From: an uncultured Solirubrobacterales bacterium
GTDB lineage: Bacteria > Actinomycetota > Thermoleophilia > Solirubrobacterales > 70-9
Reading direction: 5' to 3'
Length of the DNA: 64,000 bases
NCBI GenBank assembly: GCA_963819755.1
Contig: CAWFXB010000002.1
Location: 1,620,112 to 1,684,111, forward strand
Shown here: positions 2,916 through 38,065 of the stretch, one piece after another
Layout: every line of letters starts with the position of its first letter
Position numbering within the stretch: position 1 is the stretch's first letter
Translations under genes and position numbers: made by a program
The notes under the pieces: generated by a model
The model's input: the letters and a program-made list of their open reading frames with translations, nothing else
The model's database searches: none
What the model was told of the DNA's origin: nothing

Positions 2916-3380
2916 GTGGCGGCTATGTTTTGCGCCATGCCTGAGCGAGACGTATTTGCGAATTTTGCCCGCATGCGCAGGGAGATGGATCAGATGCTCG
3001 GTGGGGCCTGGGGTCGCACCACCTACGTGAGCAGGAGGAGCACCGGCTTCTCTCCCAACGTCGACGTCTACTACTGCGGCGATCCGCAGCGCGCTGTCGT
3101 GAAGGTCGATCTGGCCGGTGTGGACCTCGATCAGGTCGGGATCGAGGTCAGCGGTAGGCAGCTGGCGATCGTCGGGGAACGGCCGGTGCAGGAGACCGAG
3201 GGGCGGGTCTACCAGCAGGTCGAGATCCCCTCGGGCCCCTTCCGCCGCGTGGTCGAGCTGCAGGTCGACGTCGATGCCGACCAGGCCAAGGCCACCTACG
3301 AGGACGGCATCCTGCGGATCGACCTGCCGCTGCGCGACCCGGCGCAGAGCACCCGGCGCGTGCCGATCGGGCGCGACTAG
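2916..3380 (+). CDS. Hsp20/alpha-crystallin small heat-shock protein
   Basis: An alpha-crystallin domain is recognisable: FSPNVDVYY...VVKVDLAGVD...GILRIDLPL. Alternative starts are ATG 2925 and ATG 2937. Confidence 0.85.
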   Translation: MAAMFCAMPERDVFANFARMRREMDQMLGGAWGRTTYVSRRSTGFSPNVDVYYCGDPQRAVVKVDLAGVDLDQVGIEVSGRQLAIVGERPVQETEGRVYQQVEIPSGPFRRVVELQVDVDADQAKATYEDGILRIDLPLRDPAQSTRRVPIGRD

Positions 3381-3382
3381 CG

Positions 3383-5788
3383 ATGGAGAGCACGCCCGTC
3401 CTCGAAGTGGTCGAGTCCCAACTCGACGCCGAGGACGCGATCCGCGCCAGCCAGCCGCTGCCCGACGCGCTGCCGGTGCTGCCGCTGCGCGAGACGGTCA
3501 CCTTCCCCGAGACCCTCACCCCGCTCGCGGTGGGCCAGGAGCGCTCGATCAAGCTGGTCGACGACGTGCTTGGCGCCAGCCGCATGCTGGCGATGGTCGC
3601 GGCGCGCGATCCCGAGGACGAGGAGCCGGGCCCGGACGGGCTCTACGAAGTAGGCGTCGTCGGCGTCGTCGCCCGCATGCTCAAAGTCCCCGACGGGACG
3701 CTGCGCATCCTCGTCCAGGGCACCCAGCGCGTGCGCCTCGGTCCCTATGTCGCCGAGGAGCCCTACCTCGTCGCGCGGATCGCCGAGCTGCCCGACGTGA
3801 TCGACGAGGGTCCCGAGCTGGAGGCGCTGACCCGCAACGTGCAACGCACCTTCTCGGAGATCGTCGAGCACATCCCCTATCTGCCCGAGGAGCTGCAGAT
3901 GGCGGTGGCCAACATCGAGGATCCGGCGGCGCTCGGTCACCTGATCGCCGGCGCGCTGCGAATCACCACCGAGGAAAAGCAGGAGCTGCTGGAGGAGATA
4001 GACGTCGCCGCCCGCCTGCGCCGGCTCTCCCAGATCCTCGCCCGCGAGCTCGAGGTGGTCCAGCTCGGCAGCCAGATCCAGTCCCAGGTCCAGTCCGAAG
4101 TCGACAAGGGCCAGCGCGAGTTCTTCCTGCGCCAGCAGCTGAAAGCGATCCAGGACGAGCTGGGGGAGGGGGACGAGCAGCAGGCCGAGGCCAACGAGCT
4201 GCGCCAGCGCGTCGAGGAAGCCGAGCTGCCCGAGCACGCCCTCAAAGCTGCCGAGCGCGAGCTCTCCCGACTGGAGAAACTGCCCCCGGCGGCGGCCGAG
4301 CATGGCGTAATCCGCAGCTATCTCGAGTGGCTGGTCGAGCTGCCGTGGTCCAAAACGACCGAGGACGACCTCGACATCGCCCACGCCCGTGAGGTGCTCG
4401 ACGCCGATCACTACGACCTGGAGAAGGTCAAGGACCGCATCCTCGAGTACCTGGCGGTGCGCAAGCTGAAGCCGGACTCGCCGGGGCCGATCCTCTGCTT
4501 CGCCGGCCCGCCGGGAGTCGGCAAGACCAGCCTCGGGCGTTCGATCGCCAAGGCACTGGGCCGTGAGTTCGAGCGCATCTCGGTCGGCGGGGTCCGCGAC
4601 GAGGCTGAGATCCGCGGTCACCGCCGCACCTACATCGGCGCCCTGCCGGGGACGATCGTGCGCGCCCTGCGCGACGCCGGCTCGCGCAACCCCGTCTTCA
4701 TGATCGACGAGATCGACAAGATGGGCGCCGACTTCCGCGGCGACCCCTCCTCGGCGATGCTCGAGGTGCTGGACCCGGCTCAGAACGACAGCTTCCGCGA
4801 CCACTACCTCGACCTCGAGTTCGACCTCTCCGAGGTCCTCTTCATCGCCACCGCGAACGTCCTCGACACGGTCCCCGGCCCTTTGCAGGACCGGATGGAG
4901 ACGATCGAGCTGGCGGGCTACACGCTGGAGGAGAAGCGCCACATCGCCCGCCGCTACCTCGTTCCCCGCCAGATCGAGGCCAACGGCCTCAAGCCCTCGC
5001 AGATCGAGTTCTCCGACGCGGCCCTGACCGCGATCGTCGAGGAGTACACCCGCGAGGCCGGCGTCCGCAACCTCGAGCGCCAGGTCGGCACGATCTGCCG
5101 CAAAGTCGCCCGCGACGTCGCCGAGGCCCAGGGGAAACGCAACGGCAAGGCCAAGGTCGGCAAGGCACGGATCTCGGCGAAACGGGCGCGCGAGCTGCTC
5201 GGCCGCCGTCGCGTCTTCGCCGAGCAACGGCGGCGCACGAAGGACCCTGGCGTCGCCACCGGGCTCGCCTGGACGCCGGCGGGCGGCGACGTGCTCTTCA
5301 TCGAGGCGACCGCGATGCCGGGATCGGGCGGGTTGACGATCACCGGCCAGCTCGGCGACGTGATGAGGGAGTCGGCGCAGGCGGCGCTCTCCTACGTGCG
5401 CGGTCACTGGCGCGACATCGCCCCAGACCTGGAGGAGAGCTGGTTCGCCGAGCACGACATCCACATCCACGTCCCGGCCGGCGCGGTGCCCAAGGACGGG
5501 CCCTCGGCAGGCGTCGCGATGACGGTGGCGCTGTCATCGCTGATCTCCGGCCGGCCCGTGCGCAACGATGTCGCGATGACCGGCGAGGTGACCCTGACCG
5601 GACAGGTGCTGCCGATCGGCGGGCTCAAGGAGAAGTCGCTTGCGGCCCAACGGGCCGGGATCAAGCGGGTGATCGTGCCGAAGCGCAACGAAGGGGACGT
5701 CACGGAGATCCCCGAGCACGAGCGCAGCGCGCTGGAGTTCGTCTACGTCGACGAGGTCTCGAAGGCGATCGACGCCGCCCTCAAATAA
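3383..5788 (+). CDS. lon: ATP-dependent Lon protease (endopeptidase La)
   Basis: The 801-aa product has a LON N-domain, the Walker A motif GPPGVGKTS, and a protease domain with PKDGPSAGVAM and the catalytic Ser context. Confidence 0.95.
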   Translation: MESTPVLEVVESQLDAEDAIRASQPLPDALPVLPLRETVTFPETLTPLAVGQERSIKLVDDVLGASRMLAMVAARDPEDEEPGPDGLYEVGVVGVVARMLKVPDGTLRILVQGTQRVRLGPYVAEEPYLVARIAELPDVIDEGPELEALTRNVQRTFSEIVEHIPYLPEELQMAVANIEDPAALGHLIAGALRITTEEKQELLEEIDVAARLRRLSQILARELEVVQLGSQIQSQVQSEVDKGQREFFLRQQLKAIQDELGEGDEQQAEANELRQRVEEAELPEHALKAAERELSRLEKLPPAAAEHGVIRSYLEWLVELPWSKTTEDDLDIAHAREVLDADHYDLEKVKDRILEYLAVRKLKPDSPGPILCFAGPPGVGKTSLGRSIAKALGREFERISVGGVRDEAEIRGHRRTYIGALPGTIVRALRDAGSRNPVFMIDEIDKMGADFRGDPSSAMLEVLDPAQNDSFRDHYLDLEFDLSEVLFIATANVLDTVPGPLQDRMETIELAGYTLEEKRHIARRYLVPRQIEANGLKPSQIEFSDAALTAIVEEYTREAGVRNLERQVGTICRKVARDVAEAQGKRNGKAKVGKARISAKRARELLGRRRVFAEQRRRTKDPGVATGLAWTPAGGDVLFIEATAMPGSGGLTITGQLGDVMRESAQAALSYVRGHWRDIAPDLEESWFAEHDIHIHVPAGAVPKDGPSAGVAMTVALSSLISGRPVRNDVAMTGEVTLTGQVLPIGGLKEKSLAAQRAGIKRVIVPKRNEGDVTEIPEHERSALEFVYVDEVSKAIDAALK

Positions 5789-5793
5789 CGACC

Positions 5794-7395
5794 ATGGAGG
5801 CAGCCGAAGCCCTGGGCAGGGGCAACCTGTCGACGTTGTACGAGGCGCTTCGCGAGGCGGTGCGAGCGCGCTCGCGGGCCTTCTGGATCGTCGCCGGGCT
5901 GACCGTTCTCGCGGCGACGCTGCGCTTCGCCACGCTGGGGGTGCAGGCCTACCACCACGACGAGATCGTCACGGCCAGCCGCGTGCTGCGCGACGGCTTC
6001 TGGCATGCGATGGAAGCGGTCGGCTTCAGCGAGTCGGCACCGCCGCTCTACTACGCGCTGGCCTGGTTTTGGACACAGGTGACCGGGACCGGTGAGGTCG
6101 GCCTGCGCTCGGTCTCGGCGCTGGCCGGGGTGGCGACGGTGCCTGTCGCCTACCTGCTCGGCGCCGAGTTGCGCGACCGCCGGGCGGGGATCGTCGCCGC
6201 GGCGCTGGTCGCCGTCAACCCGATGCTGCTCTGGTACTCGCAGGAGGCTCGCAGCTACGCCTTGCTCGTCTTATTGACGGCAGCCGCGGCGCTCTACTTC
6301 GTCCGCGCCCTCAACCGCCCGAGGGACGTGCCGGTGGAGAGAGGTCCATATGGACCTCTCTCCACCGGCACGTCTATGGAGGGGCGTAGGGATCTGGTGC
6401 TGTGGGGGGTGTTCTCGGCGCTCGCGCTCGCGACCCACTATTTCGCGATCTTCCCGATCGCGCTCGAGGGTGGCTGGCTCCTCTGGCGCCGGCGGCGCGA
6501 CGCGCTGGTGGGGCTCTGGATCGTCCTCCTAGCCGGCTTGGCGCTGGCTCCTCTGGCGATCCACCAAATGTCGCTGGGCCACGCCGAGTGGATCGGCGAC
6601 CGCAGCCTCGGCCACCGGGTTTGGGAGGCGGGCGTGACCTTCGTCGTCGGCGAGACCGGCGACGTCGTTTCCCGGCCCGAGACCGTGCTGCCGGCTGTCC
6701 TGCCGCTTCTCGCCGTCCTGGCCGGGCTGCTGCTCCTTGCGCTGCGCGCCGATCGGGGCGAGCGGCGAGCGGGAGGGCTGATGCTGGCCTTGGCCGCGGT
6801 GACCGTCGCCGGGCCGCTGGCCCTGGCGCTCGTCGCTCCCGCCAAGGACTATGTCCTCGCGCGCAACCTGCTGCCGGCGCTGGTACCCCTGCTGGTTGCG
6901 GTGGCGATCGGGGTGACCGCGCGCCGCGCGCGGCGCAGCGGCATGGTCATCGCAGCCGTCCTCGTCGCCTACTCGCTTGGCTTCTGCGTCTGGGTCAGCA
7001 TCTCGCCGGCCTGGCAGCGGCCCGACTGGGACACGGTGGCGGCGCGGCTGGGAGAGCCGGCGGCGCCACGGGCGATCGTCCTCTGGACCCTGGGAGCGGC
7101 ATCGCTGCGCTACTACCTCTCGACCGGCTCGTTCCAGGCGCAGCCCTCCGAAGGCTTCGCCTGGAGCGTGCACGAAGTCGACTTCGTCTCCGACGGCCCC
7201 GCCCCACCCGTCCCGGCCAGCTCGCTTGGACCCCGCTTCCGCCAGGTCGGCTACGAACAGGCCGGCCGTCTTTACGTGCGGCGCTACGCGCTGCCCGGCC
7301 CCGACCTCGCCCACCTGCGCTTGCGGCGGATCCGCGACGCCGACCTCAACTTCCGCAGCAACGGAGTGCTTTTGGACGGGATTGGTCCTCAGTAA
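5794..7395 (+). CDS. GT39/ArnT-like membrane glycosyltransferase (PMT_2-like), carrying an in-frame palindromic insert
   Basis: The 533-aa polytopic membrane protein has an N-terminal YHHDE motif region typical of the dolichyl-phosphate-mannose/ArnT-type GT-C fold. Residues DVPVERGPYGPLSTGTS are encoded by the 50-nt palindrome. Confidence 0.75.
   Translation: MEAAEALGRGNLSTLYEALREAVRARSRAFWIVAGLTVLAATLRFATLGVQAYHHDEIVTASRVLRDGFWHAMEAVGFSESAPPLYYALAWFWTQVTGTGEVGLRSVSALAGVATVPVAYLLGAELRDRRAGIVAAALVAVNPMLLWYSQEARSYALLVLLTAAAALYFVRALNRPRDVPVERGPYGPLSTGTSMEGRRDLVLWGVFSALALATHYFAIFPIALEGGWLLWRRRRDALVGLWIVLLAGLALAPLAIHQMSLGHAEWIGDRSLGHRVWEAGVTFVVGETGDVVSRPETVLPAVLPLLAVLAGLLLLALRADRGERRAGGLMLALAAVTVAGPLALALVAPAKDYVLARNLLPALVPLLVAVAIGVTARRARRSGMVIAAVLVAYSLGFCVWVSISPAWQRPDWDTVAARLGEPAAPRAIVLWTLGAASLRYYLSTGSFQAQPSEGFAWSVHEVDFVSDGPAPPVPASSLGPRFRQVGYEQAGRLYVRRYALPGPDLAHLRLRRIRDADLNFRSNGVLLDGIGPQ
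6325..6374. repeat. Perfect 50-nt palindrome, copy 1 (inside the GT39 CDS, in frame)
   Basis: The sequence gacgtgccggtggagagaggtccat|atggacctctctccaccggcacgtc is its own reverse complement. It is identical to 30780..30829. Confidence 0.95.
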
Positions 7396-26478: not shown

Positions 26479-27993
26479 ATGAGCCGGGAGAGCTTCTACG
26501 TCACCACGCCGATCTACTACGTCAACGCCGAGCCACATCTCGGCCACGCGTACTCGACGCTGGTGGCTGACGTCCTCGCCCGGCACATGCGCCAGCGTGG
26601 CGAGGACGTCTTCTTCCTCACCGGCACCGACGAGCACGGCGAGCCGATCGAGCTGGCGGCCGAGCGCGAGGGCGTGACGCCGCAGGAGCTGGCCGACCGC
26701 AACGCCGCCAAGTTCGAAGCGCTGATGCCGATCATCGACGCCAGCAACGACTTCTTCATCCGCACCTCCGACCCGCGCCACGCCGAGAAGGTCGCCGAGA
26801 TCATGCAGCGGGTCTACGACAACGGCTGGGTCAACAAGGGCACCTACGAAGGCTGGTACTGCCCGCGCTGCGCCGACTTCAAAACCGAGCGCGAGCTCGG
26901 CCCCGGCCAGACCTGCCCGATCCACGAGATCCCGTTGGAGCGGATCAAGGAGGAGAACTGGTTCTTCCGCCTCTCTGCCTTCCAGGAGCGGCTCGAAGCG
27001 CTCTACGAGGAGCGGCCCGACTTCGTCGTGCCCGACTTCCGTCGCAACGAGGCGGTCTCCTTCATCGAGGGGGGGCTGGAGGACGTCTCGCTCTCGCGGC
27101 CGAAGCTGAAGTGGGGGATGCGGCTGCCCTGGGACCCCGAGCAGCGGATGTACGTGTGGTTTGACGCGCTGCTCAACTACGTCACCGCGCTCACCTTCGC
27201 CCGCGAGGGTGAGGATCTGACCGAGCGCTTCTGGCCGGCGAGCCTGCACGTGATGGCCAAGGACATCCTCAAGTTCCACGCGGTGATCTGGCCGGCGCTG
27301 CTCTGGGCGGCGGACCTCGAGCCGCCGAAGCGGATGGCGATCCATGGCTATCTGATGATGGGTGAGAAAAAGATGTCGAAGTCGCTCGGCAACGTGCTCG
27401 ACCCCTTCGAGGCGATCGACCGCTTCGGCGCCGACGCGCTGCGCTTCTACTGCTTCCGCGAGGTCAGCTTCGGCCAGGACGGCTCGATCTCGACCGCCGG
27501 CTTCGAGGCCCGCTACGAGACCGAGCTGGCCAACGACTTCGGCAACCTCGCCAGCCGCGTGCTGGCGATGGTCGAGCGCTACCGCGACGGCGTCGTCCCG
27601 GAGGCACAGGTCGACGCCGTGCTGGCCGAGGACTTCGAAGGCGTCGCCAGCCGCTTCAGCGAGTTGCTCGACAAGGCTGAGTTGACTCAGGCGCTGGAGG
27701 AGGCCTGGAAGCTGGTCCGTCGCCTCAACCGCTACGTCGAGGAGACCCGGCCGTGGGAGCTGGCGAAGGACGAGGCCGACCCGGAGCGCCTCGACGAAGT
27801 CCTCTACAACCTCGTCGAGGGCCTGCGGGTGACGACGCTGCTGCTCGTTCCCTACCTGCCGCAGACGAGCGAGCAGCTGCTCACCGCTCTAAACGAGGAC
27901 TCTCGCCAGCTCAACGAGCTAGGAGCCCGGGCTGGCGGCCAAAAGGTCGAACGGGTCCCACCGCTGTTCCCGAAGATCGAGACGCCCGCTTAG
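26479..27993 (+). CDS. metG: Methionine--tRNA ligase
   Basis: The HIGH region reads YYVNAEPHLGHAYS and the KMSKS motif reads KMSKSLGN. There is a Cys knuckle, CPRCADF...CPIH. Confidence 0.95.
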   Translation: MSRESFYVTTPIYYVNAEPHLGHAYSTLVADVLARHMRQRGEDVFFLTGTDEHGEPIELAAEREGVTPQELADRNAAKFEALMPIIDASNDFFIRTSDPRHAEKVAEIMQRVYDNGWVNKGTYEGWYCPRCADFKTERELGPGQTCPIHEIPLERIKEENWFFRLSAFQERLEALYEERPDFVVPDFRRNEAVSFIEGGLEDVSLSRPKLKWGMRLPWDPEQRMYVWFDALLNYVTALTFAREGEDLTERFWPASLHVMAKDILKFHAVIWPALLWAADLEPPKRMAIHGYLMMGEKKMSKSLGNVLDPFEAIDRFGADALRFYCFREVSFGQDGSISTAGFEARYETELANDFGNLASRVLAMVERYRDGVVPEAQVDAVLAEDFEGVASRFSELLDKAELTQALEEAWKLVRRLNRYVEETRPWELAKDEADPERLDEVLYNLVEGLRVTTLLLVPYLPQTSEQLLTALNEDSRQLNELGARAGGQKVERVPPLFPKIETPA

Positions 27994-29144
27994 GCCAGCG
28001 CGTCCGGGCCGAGCTGGTCCGGGCTCGTGTAGCCGCACAGCGCCAGCGTCAGGTCGAGCTCCCCCAGGACCATCTTGAGCACGGCTTCGACTCCCGCCTG
28101 TCCGTCCAGCGCCAGGCCCCAGACGTAGGGGCGCCCGAGGCAGACGGCGTCGGCGCCGAGGGCGAGCGCCTTGAGCGCGTCAGCGCCGCTGCGGATGCCG
28201 CTGTCGAAGAGGACCGCGATCTCGTCGCCGACGGCCTCCGCAATCGGCGCCAGCGCGTCGAGCGAGGCAAGCGCGCCGTCGACCTGGCGGCCGCCGTGGT
28301 TGGAGACGACGATGCCGTCGACCCCGCGCGCTACAGCTTCGCGGGCGTCGTCGACATGCTGGATGCCCTTGATCGCGATAGGCAGCGAGGTCACCTCGCG
28401 CAGCCACTCGAGGTCGTCCCAGCTCAGCGACGGATTGGCCTGGACGCCGAGGAAGTGGCCGGTCGCCGCGCCCTGGTCCTCCTCCGGGGTCTTCTCCAGG
28501 GCGGCGCGGAAGACCGGGTCCTGGAAGTAGTTGGCGACGCCCATCCCGTTGAGGAAAGGCAGCCATGCCTGCTGCAGGTCGCGCGGCTTCCAACCGGGGA
28601 TGAAGGTGTCGACGGTGAGCACGATCGCCGCGTAGCCCGCGGCCTCGGCGCGCTTGACGAAGCTCTCCGCCAGGTCGCGATCGTTGGGGCAGTAGAGCTG
28701 GAACCAGCGCGGCGAGCCACCCCCCGCCTCCGCGATCTCCTCCAGGGTGAAGTGCGAGTTGGTGCTGGCGATCATCGGCAGGCCGAGCGCTGCTGCGGCA
28801 CGGGCGGTCGCCAGCTCGCCGTCCTCGTGGAGCACCTTCTGCACGCCGATCGGGGCCAGCAGCAACGGCGCGGGCATCGGCGTGCCGAGCAGCTCAGTCG
28901 AGAGGTCGCGCGTGGCGACGTCGCGCAGCATGCGGGGCACGATGCGGTGGCGCTCGAAGGCCTCGCGGTTGGCCTGCATCGTCCGCTCGCCACCGGCCCC
29001 GGCGAAGACGTAATTGGCCGCACGCTCCTCCATCGCCTCTCTCGCGCGCTGCTCCAGCTCCGCGACCGCGACCGGGATAGCGGGTGGCTCGCCGCCGAGT
29101 CCCCGGATGTAGATCTCAAGGTAGTAGTCGGCGAAGTCGGCCAT
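27990..29144 (-). CDS. FMN-dependent alpha-hydroxy-acid oxidase/dehydrogenase (lactate 2-monooxygenase-like)
   Basis: The motifs ANREAFERHRIVPRMLRDV, LYCPNDRD, VLTVDT, VVSNHGGRQVDG and FDSGIRSGADALKALALGA are present. Confidence 0.85.
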   Translation of the reverse strand: MADFADYYLEIYIRGLGGEPPAIPVAVAELEQRAREAMEERAANYVFAGAGGERTMQANREAFERHRIVPRMLRDVATRDLSTELLGTPMPAPLLLAPIGVQKVLHEDGELATARAAAALGLPMIASTNSHFTLEEIAEAGGGSPRWFQLYCPNDRDLAESFVKRAEAAGYAAIVLTVDTFIPGWKPRDLQQAWLPFLNGMGVANYFQDPVFRAALEKTPEEDQGAATGHFLGVQANPSLSWDDLEWLREVTSLPIAIKGIQHVDDAREAVARGVDGIVVSNHGGRQVDGALASLDALAPIAEAVGDEIAVLFDSGIRSGADALKALALGADAVCLGRPYVWGLALDGQAGVEAVLKMVLGELDLTLALCGYTSPDQLGPDALA

Positions 29145-29156
29145 CGGCCGCGAAGG

Positions 29157-30725
29157 CTATTTCAGGCCGATGCGGCGGCGCCAGTCGCGGGCGTTGAAGG
29201 CGCGGGCGGCACGGCCGATCAGGCCGCGGCGGGCCTTCGTGTACGGATACCAGGTCGGCTCGCGCTTGCCGCCAAAACGGGCGACGATCACCGACTCCGG
29301 CCGGCAGTACTTCTTGATCCCGTACTCGCCGTGGCGGAAGCCGATCCCCGACTCCTTCCAGCCGCCCATCGGCACGTCCATCAAAACGTAGTTGACGATC
29401 ACGTCGTTGACGTTGACCGCGCCGGCCTCGATCCGCCTGCCGACCATCTCGGCCCGCTCCTTCTCACCGAAGACCGAGGCGGCGAGGCCGTAGCGGGTGT
29501 CGTTGGCGAAACGCAGAGCCTCCTCGGAGTCGCGCACCTTCATCACTCCGACGACCGGGCCGAAGGTCTCGTCGCGCATTACCGTCATCGAGTGGTCGAC
29601 GTCGACGAGCACGGTCGGTTCGAAGTAGTCGCCTGGGCCCTCGACCCGCTTGCCGCCGGTCGCCGCCTTTGCCCCCTTGGCCAGCGCGTCCTCGACCTGC
29701 GCTTCGACTATCGCCCGCTGGTTGGGCGAGGTCATCGCACCGACGTCCTTTTCAGGCGTCTTGCCGTCGGCGCCCTGGCGCAGCGCCCCGACCGCCTTGG
29801 TCAGCTTGGCGACGAACTCGTCGTAGACAGGCTCCTCGACGTAGATCCGCTCTACCGAGAGGCAGACCTGGCCCGAGTTGAACATCCCGCCCCAGGTAGC
29901 GGCGTTGGCGGCGCGGTCGACGTCGGCGTCGGAGAGGACGATCATCGGGTCCTTGCCGCCGAGCTCGAGGCTGACCGGGGTCAGCGTCTCGGCGGCACGC
30001 GCCATCACCTTGCGGCCGGTGCGGTCCGAGCCGGTGAACTGGATGAAATCGACGTTGTCGACCAGTGCGCCGCCGGTCTCACCCGTGCCGTGCACGCAGT
30101 CGAACACGTCGGGGCCGCCGATCTCACGCTTCCAGGCCTCGACGATCTCGGCCAGGCCCAGCGGCGTGAACTCCGAGGGCTTGACGACAACCGCCGCGCC
30201 CGCCTGCAGGGCCGGGATCGCGTCGCCCAGCGCCAGCGCCAGCGGAAAGTTCCAGGGACTGATCACGCCGACCACCGGGTAGGGCCGGTACTGGACCATC
30301 AGCTTCTTGGAAGCCGCCAATGCCGAGTGCGGCCTGACCGTTTCGTCGCCGATGAACTTGGCGGCCTTGGTCCCGTAGAAGTTGATCAGGTCGGTGAGGT
30401 AGACCGTCTCAGCCGTGGTGTCGCCGCGGACCTTGCCGGTCTCGGCCTGCATCGTGTCGAGCACGCGCTCGTGGTTGTCGAAGAGCCAGTCGCGCAGCTC
30501 GCCGAGCCAGCGGTAGCGGCCATCGATGCCCAGCGCCTCCCACTCGGCCTGGTTGCCGCGCACCCGCGCGACGGTCGCGGCGACGCTCTCGGCGGAGTCG
30601 ACCGCGACGCTGCCGATGGCGGTCCCGGTTGCCGGATTGAGCACCTCGATTCGCTCGGCACTGACTCCGTTGGAGCTCGCCCCGTTTACCGTCTCGCCGA
30701 CTTTCGGTGCCGTTCCGCTCTCCAC
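29157..30725 (-). CDS. NAD(P)-dependent aldehyde dehydrogenase
   Basis: The motifs VISPWNFPL, FTGSDRTGRKV, ELGGKDP and FNSGQVCLSVERIYV (catalytic Cys) are present. The GTG start is uncertain. Confidence 0.9.
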   Translation of the reverse strand: MESGTAPKVGETVNGASSNGVSAERIEVLNPATGTAIGSVAVDSAESVAATVARVRGNQAEWEALGIDGRYRWLGELRDWLFDNHERVLDTMQAETGKVRGDTTAETVYLTDLINFYGTKAAKFIGDETVRPHSALAASKKLMVQYRPYPVVGVISPWNFPLALALGDAIPALQAGAAVVVKPSEFTPLGLAEIVEAWKREIGGPDVFDCVHGTGETGGALVDNVDFIQFTGSDRTGRKVMARAAETLTPVSLELGGKDPMIVLSDADVDRAANAATWGGMFNSGQVCLSVERIYVEEPVYDEFVAKLTKAVGALRQGADGKTPEKDVGAMTSPNQRAIVEAQVEDALAKGAKAATGGKRVEGPGDYFEPTVLVDVDHSMTVMRDETFGPVVGVMKVRDSEEALRFANDTRYGLAASVFGEKERAEMVGRRIEAGAVNVNDVIVNYVLMDVPMGGWKESGIGFRHGEYGIKKYCRPESVIVARFGGKREPTWYPYTKARRGLIGRAARAFNARDWRRRIGLK

Positions 30726-30779
30726 CTGACCGCTCCCTTCGAGTTTGGCTGGTCAGCCAACTGTATCGCCCACCCGCCG

Positions 30780-30829
30780 GACGTGCCGGTGGAGAGAGGT
30801 CCATATGGACCTCTCTCCACCGGCACGTC
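30780..30829. repeat. Perfect 50-nt palindrome, copy 2 (overlaps the stop codon of the sugar dehydrogenase gene)
   Basis: It is identical to 6325..6374. It lies in the 102-nt gap between two minus-strand genes, and the stop codon at 30828-30830 shares 2 nt with it. Confidence 0.95.
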
Positions 30830-31991
30830 AGTGGCGCGGGACGAGTCGATAGACCGGGCCGTCGAGCGAGCAGACATAGACACGACCGCGGTCGTCTTCG
30901 CCGAAGGAGCTGGGGGAGGAGACGCTGAGGCCGAGCTTGTGCTCGTCGCTCGCCCCGTGCAGGTGGGGGACGAGGCTGCGCAGCTGGCCCTCGCAGAGGT
31001 CGGCGTAGACATAGCGCTTGTAGAGCGAGGTCAGGTGCGGATCGGCGACCACGTAGCCGCCGATGATCGCGCAGCTGCCGCCGCGGCTGTGCGGATAAGC
31101 GAAGATCGGCTTGACCGTGCCGCCCGGATCCGGCGTGCCGCTGTTTTCTTCTTCGTAGGGGGCGAACCCCTCGAAGGCGTCCCAGCCGAAGTTGGCGCCC
31201 TGTGCCGCGGCGACCGTGGTGTAGTCGACCTCCTCGAAGCGGTTCTGGCCGACGTCGCCGATCGCCAGCCGCGGCTGCCCCGGGTCCGTCACCCGGTCGA
31301 AGGAGAAGCGGAAGGGATTGCGCAGGCCGATGCTGTAGATCTGCGGTTTGGCGCCGGCGCGCTGTGGGTCGATCCGCAGCAGCTTGCCGAGCAGTTTGTG
31401 CGGGTTCTGGGCGTTGTTCGGCGGATCGCCGCCCGAGCCGCCGTCGCCGGTGCCGAAGTAGAGCCAGTTGCCGAGGAACTGGAGCTGGCCGCCGTTGTGA
31501 TTGGAGTTGACCGGGTGGGGTATCCGGACTATTGCGCGACGGGAGCCCCGCGCGGCTTGCGTCGCGCTCCTACGTTTGAGTTCGTCGATCCTGATGTTGC
31601 CCTGGGGATCGGTGTCGTAGACGTAGAAGCGGCCGCTGCTCTTGTAGTCGGGGGGGAAGGCGATCGAGAGCAGGCCGCGCTCGCCGCCGGAGGAGATCAG
31701 GTCGTGGATGTCGAGGAAGGGACGAGCCTGCTTGTGCCCGTTGCGCAGCACCTGCACCGTCCCGCCCTGCTCGACAACGAAGAGCAGCTTTGGGAAGCCG
31801 GGTGCGCCGGTGACGTAGACCGGGCTTTCGAAGCTGCCGATCTGCTTCAGGCCGACGCCCTGAGCTGCCGATTGCGCCGCTTCCTCGGGCGGCTGAGCCG
31901 ATCCGCAGGCCGGTAGGGCCAGCGCCAAGAGCAGCGCGAGGGCGCTACTTGCCGCTGTGCGTCTTCCCTTCGATTTCAACGACTTCGCCAT
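30828..31991 (-). CDS. PQQ-dependent soluble sugar (glucose/sorbosone) dehydrogenase lipoprotein
   Basis: There is a lipobox LALPAC, with the motifs GGERGLLSIAFPPDY, HNGGQLQFL and GLRNPFRFSFD. Confidence 0.85.
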   Translation of the reverse strand: MAKSLKSKGRRTAASSALALLLALALPACGSAQPPEEAAQSAAQGVGLKQIGSFESPVYVTGAPGFPKLLFVVEQGGTVQVLRNGHKQARPFLDIHDLISSGGERGLLSIAFPPDYKSSGRFYVYDTDPQGNIRIDELKRRSATQAARGSRRAIVRIPHPVNSNHNGGQLQFLGNWLYFGTGDGGSGGDPPNNAQNPHKLLGKLLRIDPQRAGAKPQIYSIGLRNPFRFSFDRVTDPGQPRLAIGDVGQNRFEEVDYTTVAAAQGANFGWDAFEGFAPYEEENSGTPDPGGTVKPIFAYPHSRGGSCAIIGGYVVADPHLTSLYKRYVYADLCEGQLRSLVPHLHGASDEHKLGLSVSSPSSFGEDDRGRVYVCSLDGPVYRLVPRH

Positions 31992-35325: not shown

Positions 35326-35483
35326 CTCCCGGCGGGCGGGTCCTGGCATCGGGCGCGGGTGTCCTCGCGTTGCTGGGTTTTTCGCCTGCGGCGCTGGCGG
35401 TCGTCCGAGGTTGTGGGTGGGGCGAAAAAGAGGACGCCGCTGCCGCGAGGACACCCGCGCCCGATGCCACCCGCCCGAGGGAG
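35326..35483. repeat. Long structured inverted repeat filling the mlaF-mmpL intergenic region (repeat family B, copy 1)
   Basis: Perfect 25-bp arms lie at 35345-35369 and 35444-35468, flanked by a 9-bp stem (35333-41 / 35469-77) and a 5-bp stem (35326-30 / 35479-83). The inner core is gctgggtttttcgcc ... ggggcgaaaaagaggacgccgc. Confidence 0.85.
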
Positions 35484-35488
35484 GCTGA

Positions 35489-38065
35489 ATGGCAGCGATA
35501 GCCAGCTGGTCGGTTCGTCGTGCGAAGCTGATCCTTGCGTTCTGCTTGTTCCTGGCGGTTGGAGCTGGGGTGGTTGCTACGCAGCTGCCTACCGATGCCG
35601 CCACTAACACGCTGGTCGATTCGGATACCGCGAGCTACCAGGCAACGCAGCAGGTCAAGCGGGACTTCGGCGAAGAACCGGTGGTCATCCTCGCCGAGGG
35701 GGACCTGCAGCGCCTTGTCTTGACCTCGAATCTCGGACGCTTGCTGCGGCTCGAGGGTTGTCTCTCGGGCAAGGTGCCGAAGGGAGCCGAACCGATCCCC
35801 GGGCCTTGCGCCGAACTCGCTGAACAGGACCCGGTGCGCTCGATCGCCGGTCCGGCCACCTTCCTCAACGAGGCGGTGATTCAGATCCAGCGGCAGCTGA
35901 ACCGGCTCGTCGCCACGGTTCCGCCCGCGCAGCTGCGCGAACTGCTGCTCGAAATAGCGGCGCGCTATGGGATCACCAGCGCGCCCAGCCTCTCCAACCC
36001 CAACTTCCTCGCCGCGATCGTCTTCGACCTGCACAAGTCCCGCGGGACCCCGAAGGCGCGCCTCTCCTACCTCTTCCCAAACAAGCACTCGGCTCAGATC
36101 ATCTTGCGCTTACGATCCGACCTCAGCGAAGCCGAGCGCCACCAAGCAATAGAAACGATCAAGGCGATCGTCCACGATCCCGTGGTCCGTCCGGAGTGCA
36201 AGTTCAAGGGCAAGCCGGAACGTTGCTTCGAGCTGCACGGCGGCAACTTCGTCATTTCCGGAGTACCGGTCGTAATCGACGGGGTGACGCGGGCGCTCAA
36301 GGATGCGCTGCTGGTGCTGCTCGGGGTGGCATTGGTCGTTATGGCCCTGACCCTGATGCTCGTCTTCCGCTCCCGCTGGCGGCTGCTGCCGCTCGGCATC
36401 GCGCTGGCGGCGGCAGCTCTCACGTTCGGCCTCTTCGGGCTCGTCGGCGGCTCGCTAACGATGGCTTCAATCGCCGCCCTTCCCATTTTGGTCGGTCTCG
36501 CAGTCGATTACGCGATCCAGCTACAAGCTCGTTACGACGAGGCGATTGCGATTGGTGCGAGCCCCGGGGCCGACGCCGCTCGCCTCGCCGCATCTGGCGG
36601 CGGCCCCACGATCGCTATTGCTTGCCTGGCGACTGGCGCGGGCTTCCTGGCTCTTCAGCTTTCACCGACGCCGATGGTGCGCAGCTTTGGGCTGCTCCTG
36701 ATCGTCGGTATCGCTATCGCCTTTGCGCTGGCGTTCATTGCGGGCTTTGCAGCGCTCAGCCTGCGTGGGGAGGCGGGAGCGCCGGGTCCCCCTCCGCGCG
36801 CTGGGTTTTTCGCCGGGCGGCTTGCGTCTCTCGCTGAGCGGGCGGGGCGAAAAACAGGACGCCGCGCGTCTCCGGGGGACCCGACACTCCCGCCTCTACT
36901 CCAGCGCGTTCTTGCAATGGCACAGGGGCACCCGATGCGGGTCCTTGGCATCGGACTTGCACTTGCAGTGATCGGTTGGGGCGTGGGGACCCAGATCGAA
37001 ACCCAGACCAATATCCAGGAGCTGGCGCCACAGAACGTGGAGGCCGTGCGCGAACTGAACGAGCTTCAAGACGCTACGGGGGTCTCCGGCGAGCTGGATG
37101 TGAGTGTCAAGGCCCCAGATCTCACGGATCCGGCGACGATTCAATGGATGGCCGCGTTCAAGCGCCGCGTTCTCAGGGCGGGCGGCTTTTCTGGCTCCAA
37201 TCCAAGCTGCCAGGAGGCGGAAGTTTGCCCGGGCCCCGCCCTATCCGACTTCGTGACGGGAGGCGGCCTTACTACCGGCACGGAGGGACCATTGACCCGA
37301 CGCAGCATCCGCGCGGCCTTGGGTCAGATCCCCGCCTATGACTTGCGGCAGGTGACTACGGTCGATCCGAAGACCGGGCTGCCCGCCGGGACCGCGCTGC
37401 TGGGGTTCGGCATCCGCGCCCAGTCATTAGACGACCAGCAGGCACTGATCGATCGGATCCGTGACGAGATCGGGACGCCCGGTGAGAAGGGTGGGCCGCC
37501 TGCCGGGGTGGAGGTTGAGCTTGCTGGGTTGCCGGTGATCGCCGCCTCGGCTGCCTCCGATTTGTCGAGCAGTCGTTACCTGTTGACGTTGGTTGGTCTG
37601 GTCGCTGTGGCGCTGGTGCTGCTTCTGGTCTACCGCTCCTTCTCTCGCGCCCTGGTGCCGTTGGTGCCTATCGTGCTGGCAACCGGTTGGTCGGCACTTG
37701 TTCTCTGGCTGACGCGCGTTCCGCTCAACCCGATGTCGGCTGCGCTCGGGGCTTTGACGATCGCTATCGCCACCGAGTTCAGCGTGATCCTTGCTGCTCG
37801 CTTCCGCCAGGAGCGTCGGGCTGGGCGTGAGCTTGGGGTGGCATTGCATCAGGCGTACTCACGTACCGGCGCGGCCGTGCTGGCGTCGGGGGTGACGGCG
37901 ATTGCCGGCTTCGCCGTGTTGATCGCCAGTGACGTCGGGATGCTGCGCCAGTTCGGCTTCGTCACCGTGATCGACCTCGCGGTCGCCCTGCTGGGCGTGA
38001 TCGTGGCGCTGCCCGCGGCGCTCGTCTGGACGGAGGGCTGGGGGAGGGGAGGGGCGGAAAGGTGA
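35489..38065 (+). CDS. MMPL/HAE3-type RND-superfamily membrane transporter
   Basis: The 858-aa product has two TM bundles with ...LPILVGLAVDYAIQLQARYDE... and ...IAIATEFSVILAARFRQER... plus two large extracytoplasmic domains. Confidence 0.85.
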   Translation: MAAIASWSVRRAKLILAFCLFLAVGAGVVATQLPTDAATNTLVDSDTASYQATQQVKRDFGEEPVVILAEGDLQRLVLTSNLGRLLRLEGCLSGKVPKGAEPIPGPCAELAEQDPVRSIAGPATFLNEAVIQIQRQLNRLVATVPPAQLRELLLEIAARYGITSAPSLSNPNFLAAIVFDLHKSRGTPKARLSYLFPNKHSAQIILRLRSDLSEAERHQAIETIKAIVHDPVVRPECKFKGKPERCFELHGGNFVISGVPVVIDGVTRALKDALLVLLGVALVVMALTLMLVFRSRWRLLPLGIALAAAALTFGLFGLVGGSLTMASIAALPILVGLAVDYAIQLQARYDEAIAIGASPGADAARLAASGGGPTIAIACLATGAGFLALQLSPTPMVRSFGLLLIVGIAIAFALAFIAGFAALSLRGEAGAPGPPPRAGFFAGRLASLAERAGRKTGRRASPGDPTLPPLLQRVLAMAQGHPMRVLGIGLALAVIGWGVGTQIETQTNIQELAPQNVEAVRELNELQDATGVSGELDVSVKAPDLTDPATIQWMAAFKRRVLRAGGFSGSNPSCQEAEVCPGPALSDFVTGGGLTTGTEGPLTRRSIRAALGQIPAYDLRQVTTVDPKTGLPAGTALLGFGIRAQSLDDQQALIDRIRDEIGTPGEKGGPPAGVEVELAGLPVIAASAASDLSSSRYLLTLVGLVAVALVLLLVYRSFSRALVPLVPIVLATGWSALVLWLTRVPLNPMSAALGALTIAIATEFSVILAARFRQERRAGRELGVALHQAYSRTGAAVLASGVTAIAGFAVLIASDVGMLRQFGFVTVIDLAVALLGVIVALPAALVWTEGWGRGGAER
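36782..36884. repeat. Repeat family B, copy 2 (in frame inside the MMPL CDS)
   Basis: It shares gctgggtttttcgcc (36800-36814) and ggggcgaaaaacaggacgccgc (36844-36865) with copy 1 at similar spacing (29 vs 32 nt). Its own outer stem is cgggtccccc / gggggacccg. Confidence 0.65.

Follow-up and report, generated by a model that had tools for sequence, protein, structure and literature searches.

A 50-nt palindrome within a glycosyltransferase gene belongs to a family of dispersed hairpin repeats in uncultured soil Solirubrobacterales

A perfect palindrome of 50 nt is embedded in a GT39-type membrane glycosyltransferase gene on a 64-kb stretch of DNA (64,000 nt of contig CAWFXB010000002.1) from an uncultured Solirubrobacterales bacterium, which was analysed here over its whole length and is referred to as the window. 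The palindrome was found to be a member of a family of dispersed hairpin repeats specific to a clade of uncultured soil Solirubrobacterales with small genomes. It is regarded as mobile or recombinogenic because identical copies occur at unrelated sites, orthologous sites are filled in some genomes and empty in others, and the genomes hold subfamilies of their own. This agrees with an initial annotation made from the sequence, which had proposed a small mobile or recombinogenic element tolerated within coding sequence; transposition itself is what we infer from the pattern. We consider it probable that the family is a non-autonomous mobile element similar to the repetitive extragenic palindromic (REP) sequences and REPINs, behaving like a Rickettsia palindromic element (RPE) when it lands in a gene. 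A literature search found no description of this 50-nt repeat, and the family is apparently previously undescribed.

The element, its family and its genome-specific variants

The sequence of copy 1 at 6325-6374, GACGTGCCGGTGGAGAGAGGTCCATATGGACCTCTCTCCACCGGCACGTC, was confirmed to be self-complementary over all 50 nt, and the identical 50-mer was present again at 30780-30829, as initially annotated. No further match with up to three mismatches was detected in the window, where dinucleotide shuffles gave an expectation of 0, and a search with the nhmmer family profile (E = 4.6e-10 for copy 1) also returned these two copies only, a density that extrapolates to tens of copies per genome. When folded as RNA, the 50-mer gave a hairpin with an energy of -68.8 kcal/mol, its z score relative to shuffles being -10. 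Public sequencing runs, considered as a source of RNA or read evidence, each contained at most 9% of the locus words. The initial annotation had emphasized that the palindrome is free of stop codons in all six frames, which is correct; the same holds, however, for 36% of random palindromes of 50 nt and 68% GC, and the openness therefore carries no weight alone and was discarded as a signal.

The family was surveyed in one genome per species with the pattern GACGTGCCG-N32-CGGCACGTC. The scan recovered at least 118 stretches, and about 90% of the matches listed were in Solirubrobacterales metagenome-assembled genomes (MAGs) of 2.5-2.9 Mb. The element is thus far from restricted to two places, being present in dozens of these MAGs with several copies in each; at least about 11 copies were found on the chromosome OY970300.1 and at least about 6-8 on each of three others. 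Around 12 singletons in unrelated taxa and five matches on viral contigs had a non-palindromic interior, and carriage by phages or occurrence in unrelated taxa was rejected, as these matches are attributable to chance. Two loci of JBLMYD01, labelled as the Chloroflexota MAG238 (L104 and L144), held true family members with flanks 90-91% identical to Solirubrobacterales loci (L157). Judging from these flanks, they are probably mis-binned Solirubrobacterales contigs and provide no evidence for the family in Chloroflexota.

The length of the element was nearly constant, as 110 of 113 elements were exactly 50 nt, and these 110, drawn from all loci, were used as the collection for the analyses below. 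Between 17 and 25 of their 25 arm positions were paired, and 14 were perfect palindromes. All copies had a foot of 9 bp, GACGTGCCG...CGGCACGTC, with arm positions 1-9 invariant. The adjoining positions 10-12 were hypervariable, yet 83-92% paired; this outer-stem segment of 3-4 bp was common to the copies within a genome and differed between genomes, with the pairing kept. Positions 13-16 were mostly (C/G)TTA, giving the segment (C/G)TTA...TAA(G/C), and were followed by a variable inner stem at positions 16-21 (approximately 45-67% paired), a C at position 22 and a conserved, CCATATGG-like centre. A few copies also shared the outer arms CCCCAAC..GGG / CCC..GTTGGGG.

Several other identities for the repeat were examined and rejected. 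The 8-mers of the ends standing alone were found 165 times in 1.67 Mb of element-bearing loci, against approximately 132 expected, which is the level of chance. Other apparent solo ends were degenerate 50-nt copies, and the 9-mer was rejected as an independently dispersed word such as an uptake sequence. Neither a longer element with the same ends nor a related insertion sequence (IS) was found in these loci, and the self-complementarity of the flanks equalled that of a control with mismatched partners, ruling out a longer element hidden in the flanks. No known RNA family was found either: no Rfam family in the window reached the gathering score and the element itself gave only sub-threshold microRNA hairpin noise.

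The distribution of variants supported the copying of the element within genomes. The 50-mer of the window was found also at a third site, in L136. In OY970165.1, the copy at the glycosyltransferase site and an intergenic copy had the same sequence (L096 and L111), and OY970300.1 held at least five copies of one imperfect master sequence. This master recurs with its mismatches, indicating that the unit is copied whole and that the arms are not just rebuilt from each other. Of 93 elements, 47.6 had their nearest relative within the same genome, compared with 4.0 expected, and copies were much closer to others of their genome than to those occupying the corresponding site elsewhere. Orthologous sites with flanks 78-91% identical carried each genome's own variant, including the site of copy 2 in comparison with its orthologue in L169, and both filled and empty orthologous sites were observed. 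Target-site duplications, one of the features by which the initial annotation had proposed to recognize insertion, were absent: direct repeats of 3 nt or longer were found at 5 of 109 junctions and those of 2 nt at 13 of 109, which is about the level of chance.

Filled, empty and scarred alleles of the glycosyltransferase site

The host gene of copy 1 matched the Pfam families PMT_2 (5.7e-12) and PMT (4.6e-8). The insert, aa 178-194, is flanked by hydrophobic stretches at aa 152-174 and 201-224, consistent with the two transmembrane segments between which it had been placed. Copy 1 is in frame at codon phase 0, with position 6325 as codon position 1, and encodes DVPVERGPYGPLSTGT(S). The 17 codons of the insert had initially been counted with the preceding G; they consist instead of the element and the following T (6325-6375), encoding DVPVERGPYGPLSTGTS. 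An AlphaFold model of the protein (mean pLDDT 45) showed no more than a coil between two helices, and the loop is most likely cytoplasmic, as judged by its arginine-rich flanks alone.

A protein search with the host detected more than 2500 homologues, the close ones being GT39 proteins of Solirubrobacterales. The closest 120, sharing 79-95% identity and derived from Solirubrobacterales MAGs where the source names the organism, fell into two length classes of approximately 513 and 530 aa, and the difference was located exactly at the insert site. These included clean-empty alleles (..FVRALD-GGRRRDFTG..), filled alleles with DVPxxxxxYGxxxxGTS of variable interior, and short alleles retaining only DVP and/or GTS remnants. 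The view that the 17 residues are an insertion was thus borne out by many orthologues lacking them. At the DNA level, examined in 62 metagenome loci, the filled alleles carried 50-nt elements with ends alike and interiors different, in which 17-25 of the 25 arm positions were paired.

The closest empty allele, L181/P0023, corresponds to the window allele minus 54 nt. The flanks are alike, and the boundary is ambiguous by 1-2 nt through a GGA microhomology (window, ...CCCGAGG[GACG..CGTCTATG]GAGGGGCG; L181, ...CCCGAGGGAGGGGCG). The insert in the window splits the two units of a GAGG-GAGG tandem. As this tandem already exists in the empty L181 allele, the repeat is not a duplication made by insertion.

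The short alleles are evidently deletion scars, judging from what they retain: GACGTGCCG-AGA-GGCACGTC alone in L182, ACGTC in L183 and L016, and GACGGCACGTC in L017. Long perfect palindromes are unstable, and the removal of the centre or of one side via short microhomologies, as seen in these scars, fits such instability. When the orthologues were ordered by neighbour joining, empty and scarred alleles were interleaved with full ones. A single clade of filled alleles was thus rejected, and the order is compatible with single as well as repeated filling of the site.

An additional conserved, perfect palindrome of 32 nt, GCGCGATCCTGGCCAGCTGGCCAGGATCGCGC, unrelated to the 50-nt family, was noticed in three more distant relatives (L040 18963-18994, L051 20626-20657 and L052 19036-19067), apparently at one common position, some 9 kb downstream of the GT39 gene.

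Genomic placement and alternative explanations

The placement of the 110 copies was determined with genes called by our own codon-usage caller, which recovered the Pfam-supported genes of the window. The family proved to be mainly extragenic, with 84 copies (approximately 76%) intergenic and 26 in called coding sequence, in sampled DNA of which about 83% is coding. By gene arrangement, 49 intergenic copies lay between tandem, 17 between convergent and 8 between divergent genes, the divergent arrangement being under-represented. Between tandem genes, 44 of the 49 copies were closer to the upstream stop codon than to the downstream start codon, at a median of 9 nt, and 15 of the 83 gene ends had a stop codon that overlapped the end of the element (TA|G or T|GA). 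Copy 2 is typical of this post-stop-codon kind: it is intergenic among minus-strand genes, 54 nt upstream of the start codon of an aldehyde dehydrogenase gene (30725), and the TGA stop codon of the preceding glucose/sorbosone dehydrogenase-like gene is formed by one flanking T and the first two bases of the element, an overlap of 2 nt.

Several kinds of hairpin element seem to accumulate in some spacers behind stop codons. At the intergenic site of one OY970300.1 element (L090 4202), L113 held an unrelated palindrome, GCTGCGGACTTTCTACGT...ACGTACAAAGTCCACAGCG, of approximately 52 nt between orthologous flanks, and L071 held a repeat-rich insert of 328 nt.

The preference for the 3' ends of genes would also be expected if the element served the host as a terminator in both directions, as a hairpin that stabilises mRNA or as a modulator of translation termination, maintained by selection for this function and not by selfish mobility, with the intragenic copies being accidental. 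The closeness to stop codons, the abundance between convergent and rarity between divergent genes, the high stability of the hairpin and the persistence of filled orthologous sites across species agree with this explanation, and a role as RNA elements downstream of ORFs has been suggested for REPs (PMC3733652). However, the GC-rich stem differs from an intrinsic terminator in that no T/U tract follows it: the frequency of T in the right flank was 0.06-0.17 beyond position +1, although canonical A/T-tract terminators occur elsewhere in related loci. Selection on RNA of one strand was not supported either, as stem mismatches of the A:C type (110) and the G:T type (108, corresponding to G:U in RNA) were equally frequent and the split by sense strand (67 vs 78) showed no bias. 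Furthermore, pairing in the inner stem decays freely, many orthologous sites are empty without a substitute hairpin, and copies within DnaE, GT39 and other genes are difficult to read as terminators. A host function at mRNA 3' ends thus fits the positions and lacks the support of mismatches and U tracts; we regard it as unlikely in place of mobility, with which it is compatible.

The intragenic copies raised a second explanation, in which the encoded peptide is kept for a function at the protein level, as a module recruited by several proteins with palindromy being secondary. Among clearly internal sites (Table 1), phase 0 was represented by about 6-7 distinct sites, compared with one for phase 1 and two for phase 2. 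The peptide in phase 0 is the Pro/Gly-rich DVPxxxxPYGxxxxGTS, and its frame is intact in approximately 50 GT39 orthologues. However, about three quarters of all copies are untranslated, many close orthologues of the glycosyltransferase lack the peptide or retain scars only, and other phases are used in the kinase, the amidohydrolase and the GT4 enzyme. In addition, the codons for residues 4 and 14 of the insert were complementary in 36 of 49 orthologues, compared with 9.4 in shuffles, so that the residue pairs (S-D, G-P, V-T and R-R) co-vary according to DNA complementarity, unlike those of a protein motif. A peptide-level function is accordingly very unlikely.

The formation of the palindromes in place, by fold-back or template-switch errors of replication that lengthen short inverted repeats at sites unrelated by movement, would account for the palindromes of 16-20 nt made of the two ends alone at the GT39 site (L182: GACGTGCCGAGAGGCACGTC) and for the C-rich left and G-rich right flanks. 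It is close to refuted by the identical 50-mer at unrelated sites, by the fixed length, and by the 9-nt ends, TTAG segment and centre common to more than 100 sites in dozens of genomes; moreover, the short forms still contain bases from the flanks of filled alleles (L183: ACGTC+TACG) and thus read as scars, not precursors. Chimeric reads or errors in assembly graphs can yield perfect palindromes, but an artefact has a negligible probability here, as the family occupies the same sites in many independent assemblies of different projects and record types (metagenome contigs from JGI, MAG records of NCBI/ENA that are labelled as whole chromosomes, and contigs from Logan) and the frame of the host gene runs intact through the palindrome.

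Table 1. Coordinates of the features in the window, and hosts of intragenic copies of the family (calls at the extreme N-terminus are left out of the host list)
Feature	Position in window	Strand	Basis or remark
Copy 1 of the 50-nt palindromic element	6325..6374	.	Exact self-complementarity; family profile match
Copy 2, identical to copy 1, intergenic	30780..30829	.	Directly 3' of the GSDH-like gene
GT39 / PMT_2-type membrane glycosyltransferase gene, 533 aa, host of copy 1	5794..7395	+	Pfam matches
54-nt (18-codon) stretch missing from the closest empty allele (L181/P0023)	6325..6378	+	Allele alignment
Glucose/sorbosone dehydrogenase-like gene	30828..31991	-	ORF list; Pfam GSDH 5.3e-20
Aldehyde dehydrogenase gene, downstream of copy 2	29157..30725	-	Pfam Aldedh 1.2e-130
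Intragenic host: GT39			Phase 0
Intragenic host: DNA polymerase III alpha (DnaE), between HHH_6 and OB domains			DVP..GTS insert; site filled in three genomes
Intragenic host: CobA-HemD fusion			DVP..GTS insert
Intragenic host: class IV aminotransferase			DVP..GTS insert
Intragenic hosts: two proteins without Pfam domains			DVP..GTS inserts
Intragenic host: Ser/Thr kinase linker			Phase 1
Intragenic hosts: amidohydrolase and GT4 glycosyltransferase			Phase 2
Intragenic host: MiaA C-terminus			

Other features of the window were noted beside the two copies. The glycosyltransferase gene is preceded immediately by a Lon protease gene (3383-5788, plus strand), which is shadowed by an antisense ORF of 697 aa (3377-5470, minus strand), and an ORF of 1387 aa (27753-31916, plus strand) runs antisense through several real genes and copy 2. 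Both antisense ORFs are typical shadow ORFs of high-GC DNA, not genes, and call for caution in any ORF-based reading of the context of the palindrome. The window also contains a second structured repeat family of approximately 125 nt per copy, at 35344-35469 and 36770-36896, with a conserved core, CTGGGTTTTTCGCC..(~30 nt)..GGGGCGAAAAA(G/C)AGGACGCCGC, inside an outer stem of 23-26 bp. The sequence of this outer stem varies by copy, and its complementarity is 100% in the first copy but 91% in the second. Repeats related to these were found in L035 (two), L040, L053 and L063, and no Rfam family matched them.

Possible mechanism, relation to known repeats and significance

If the family is mobile, the whole 50-nt unit would be copied by a trans-acting factor recognising the foot of the hairpin and inserted without target-site duplication, and in each lineage the few stem base pairs adjoining the foot would co-evolve with this factor. 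Copies would survive mainly a few bases past stop codons, either because they are least harmful there or because they act as RNA hairpins at 3' ends. A few would persist within genes, in loops and linkers, with the DVPxxxxPYGxxxxGTS frame most often kept. Copy 1 would then be an old in-frame insertion, which other lineages may have overwritten or replaced with their own variant, or partly deleted.

No conserved target word, including a tetranucleotide, was found beside the element in the junction flanks, the only features of which were G at -1 (57%), C/T at +1 (89%), a left side rich in C and a right side rich in G. Asymmetric copies showed no link between their orientation and gene direction, and the ratio of 15:10 obtained with local gene strand as well as with local GC skew was not significant. 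In OY970300.1, 7 of 7 copies fitted the replichore when read by eye with the origin assumed near position 0; this set combined four scored copies (three of the master subfamily and one other) with three master copies oriented by eye, and the pattern is no more than suggestive.

Several observations weigh against the interpretation as a mobile element. In the 1.67 Mb of loci, phmmer and tblastn searches with IS200 TnpA and E. coli RAYT queries detected nothing, and no transposase-like ORF lay next to paired elements or in the interval between them. De novo insertion was not seen. Filled and empty flanks were often not alignable to the base, and the inserted stretches were longer than the 50 nt of the element, with a few additional non-conserved bases (54-55 nt in clear cases). 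The invariance of the 9-nt ends is partly a matter of ascertainment, as they were demanded by the search pattern. Finally, orthologous sites holding different genome-specific variants would require repeated targeting, cassette-like replacement or short-tract gene conversion.

The element was compared with the known classes of bacterial palindromic repeats. REPs have been sorted into GTAG- and CGTC-tagged superfamilies and defined as palindromes of 20-40 bp with a stem of 5-13 bp and a loop of 2-20 nt, located mainly downstream of ORFs and in some cases within genes, often those of replication or repair (Di Nocera et al. 2013, PMC3733652). The present element shares with them the many dispersed copies, mainly past ORFs between tandem or convergent genes, but exceeds this size, being 50 nt with arms of 25 nt and a loop that is effectively 0-4 nt long. 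A GTAG tag is absent; CGTC closes both of its strands, base-paired with GACG, at both ends. According to the same study, CGTC REPs have stems of 8-9 bp, loops of 4-5 nt, a CCA tail and, at one of their ends, a tag that is unpaired, usually form head-to-head dimers, include Rickettsia RPE-4 and RPE-6 as well as Neisseria dRS3, and are without a dedicated transposase (PMC3733652). The element resembles them in strands ending in CGTC, in an A:T pair as the first stem pair after the tag, and in extragenic copies downstream of ORFs with some intragenic ones, including that in a replication gene (DnaE). It differs in having no tail and in the pairing of GACG/CGTC within its 25-bp arm, and the shared 4-mer could be a coincidence.

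REPINs are two inverted halves in one long hairpin (PMC3337134 and PMC3116915). The two 25-nt arms of the element likewise form one hairpin (cf. PMC3337134, PMC3116915 and 10.1101/2022.05.22.493013), and each of the populations in OY970165.1, OY970300.1 and the window is genome-specific and centred on a master sequence. The element also resembles REP/REPIN of Pseudomonas and Enterobacteria in being short, dispersed, non-coding, free of target-site duplication and long-lived at fixed positions. Unlike a REPIN, it has no spacer and its arms are not REP hairpins themselves, the stem being one uninterrupted helix of 23-25 bp. In REPIN-RAYT systems, a cognate single-copy gene for RAYT, a Y1 HUH transposase, is present and usually flanked by the repeats; the unpaired GTAG tag of such systems is absent here, and no RAYT match was found in the 1.67 Mb of loci. 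The host belongs to an actinobacterial order, and to a phylum, outside the coverage of the REP surveys consulted.

RPEs are palindromic repeats found in frame in unrelated housekeeping genes, where they add a short peptide and leave the gene intact (PMC10969869). A minority of copies of the element behave in this manner, inserting in frame with a conserved peptide in GT39, DnaE, CobA-HemD, the aminotransferase and two other proteins. In contrast, RPEs are approximately 100-150 bp with a large share in ORFs, and their hosts are obligate intracellular alphaproteobacteria, not free-living soil actinobacteria, so that the element, one third as large and from another phylum, is set apart by size and host description. 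As about three quarters of its copies are intergenic, the family resembles REP more than RPE. [quoted passage not shown] The element shows no target-site duplication and has no parent IS in the loci searched, and is therefore not a classical MITE. In MITEs, target-site duplications are typical, and the IS element of origin can be identified. The 'peel and paste' transposition of IS200/IS605 involves recognition of hairpins, makes no duplication and can re-use the same target. It would fit the repeated occupation of the same sites, as a mechanistic analogy alone: unlike for IS200/IS605, the loci gave no TnpA match, the junctions no target tetranucleotide, and the orientation ratio was only 15:10 against GC skew or gene strand.

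One specific version of the mobile-element interpretation would invoke an enzyme specific for the foot of the hairpin, neither RAYT nor IS200/IS605 TnpA, that swaps the interiors of resident copies for the current master of the genome at fixed sites. Such an enzyme would explain the genome's own variants at orthologous sites together with the universal 9-bp foot and the genome-specific next 3-4 bp. We consider this version quite unlikely. If true, interior swapping would be a new way in which the hairpin repeats of bacteria move or evolve in concert, and the enzyme would possibly be the missing mobiliser for the 'orphan' CGTC-type REPs. Apart from any particular enzyme, the combination of a universal foot, a genome-specific stem and replacement at the same site bears on the co-evolution of hairpin repeats with their recogniser.

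For the annotation of these MAGs, inserts of 17-18 residues of the DVP...GTS type and stop codons overlapping the element are to be expected. The GT39 site provides a natural series at one protein loop, comprising empty, filled (in several variants) and scarred alleles, which is useful for studying the tolerance of proteins to peptides from mobile elements and the upkeep or loss of perfect palindromes in bacteria. To our knowledge, studies of behaviour like that of REP/REPIN and RPE have dealt almost exclusively with Proteobacteria, and the present family extends such behaviour to the uncultured, small-genome soil Solirubrobacterales of the Actinomycetota.

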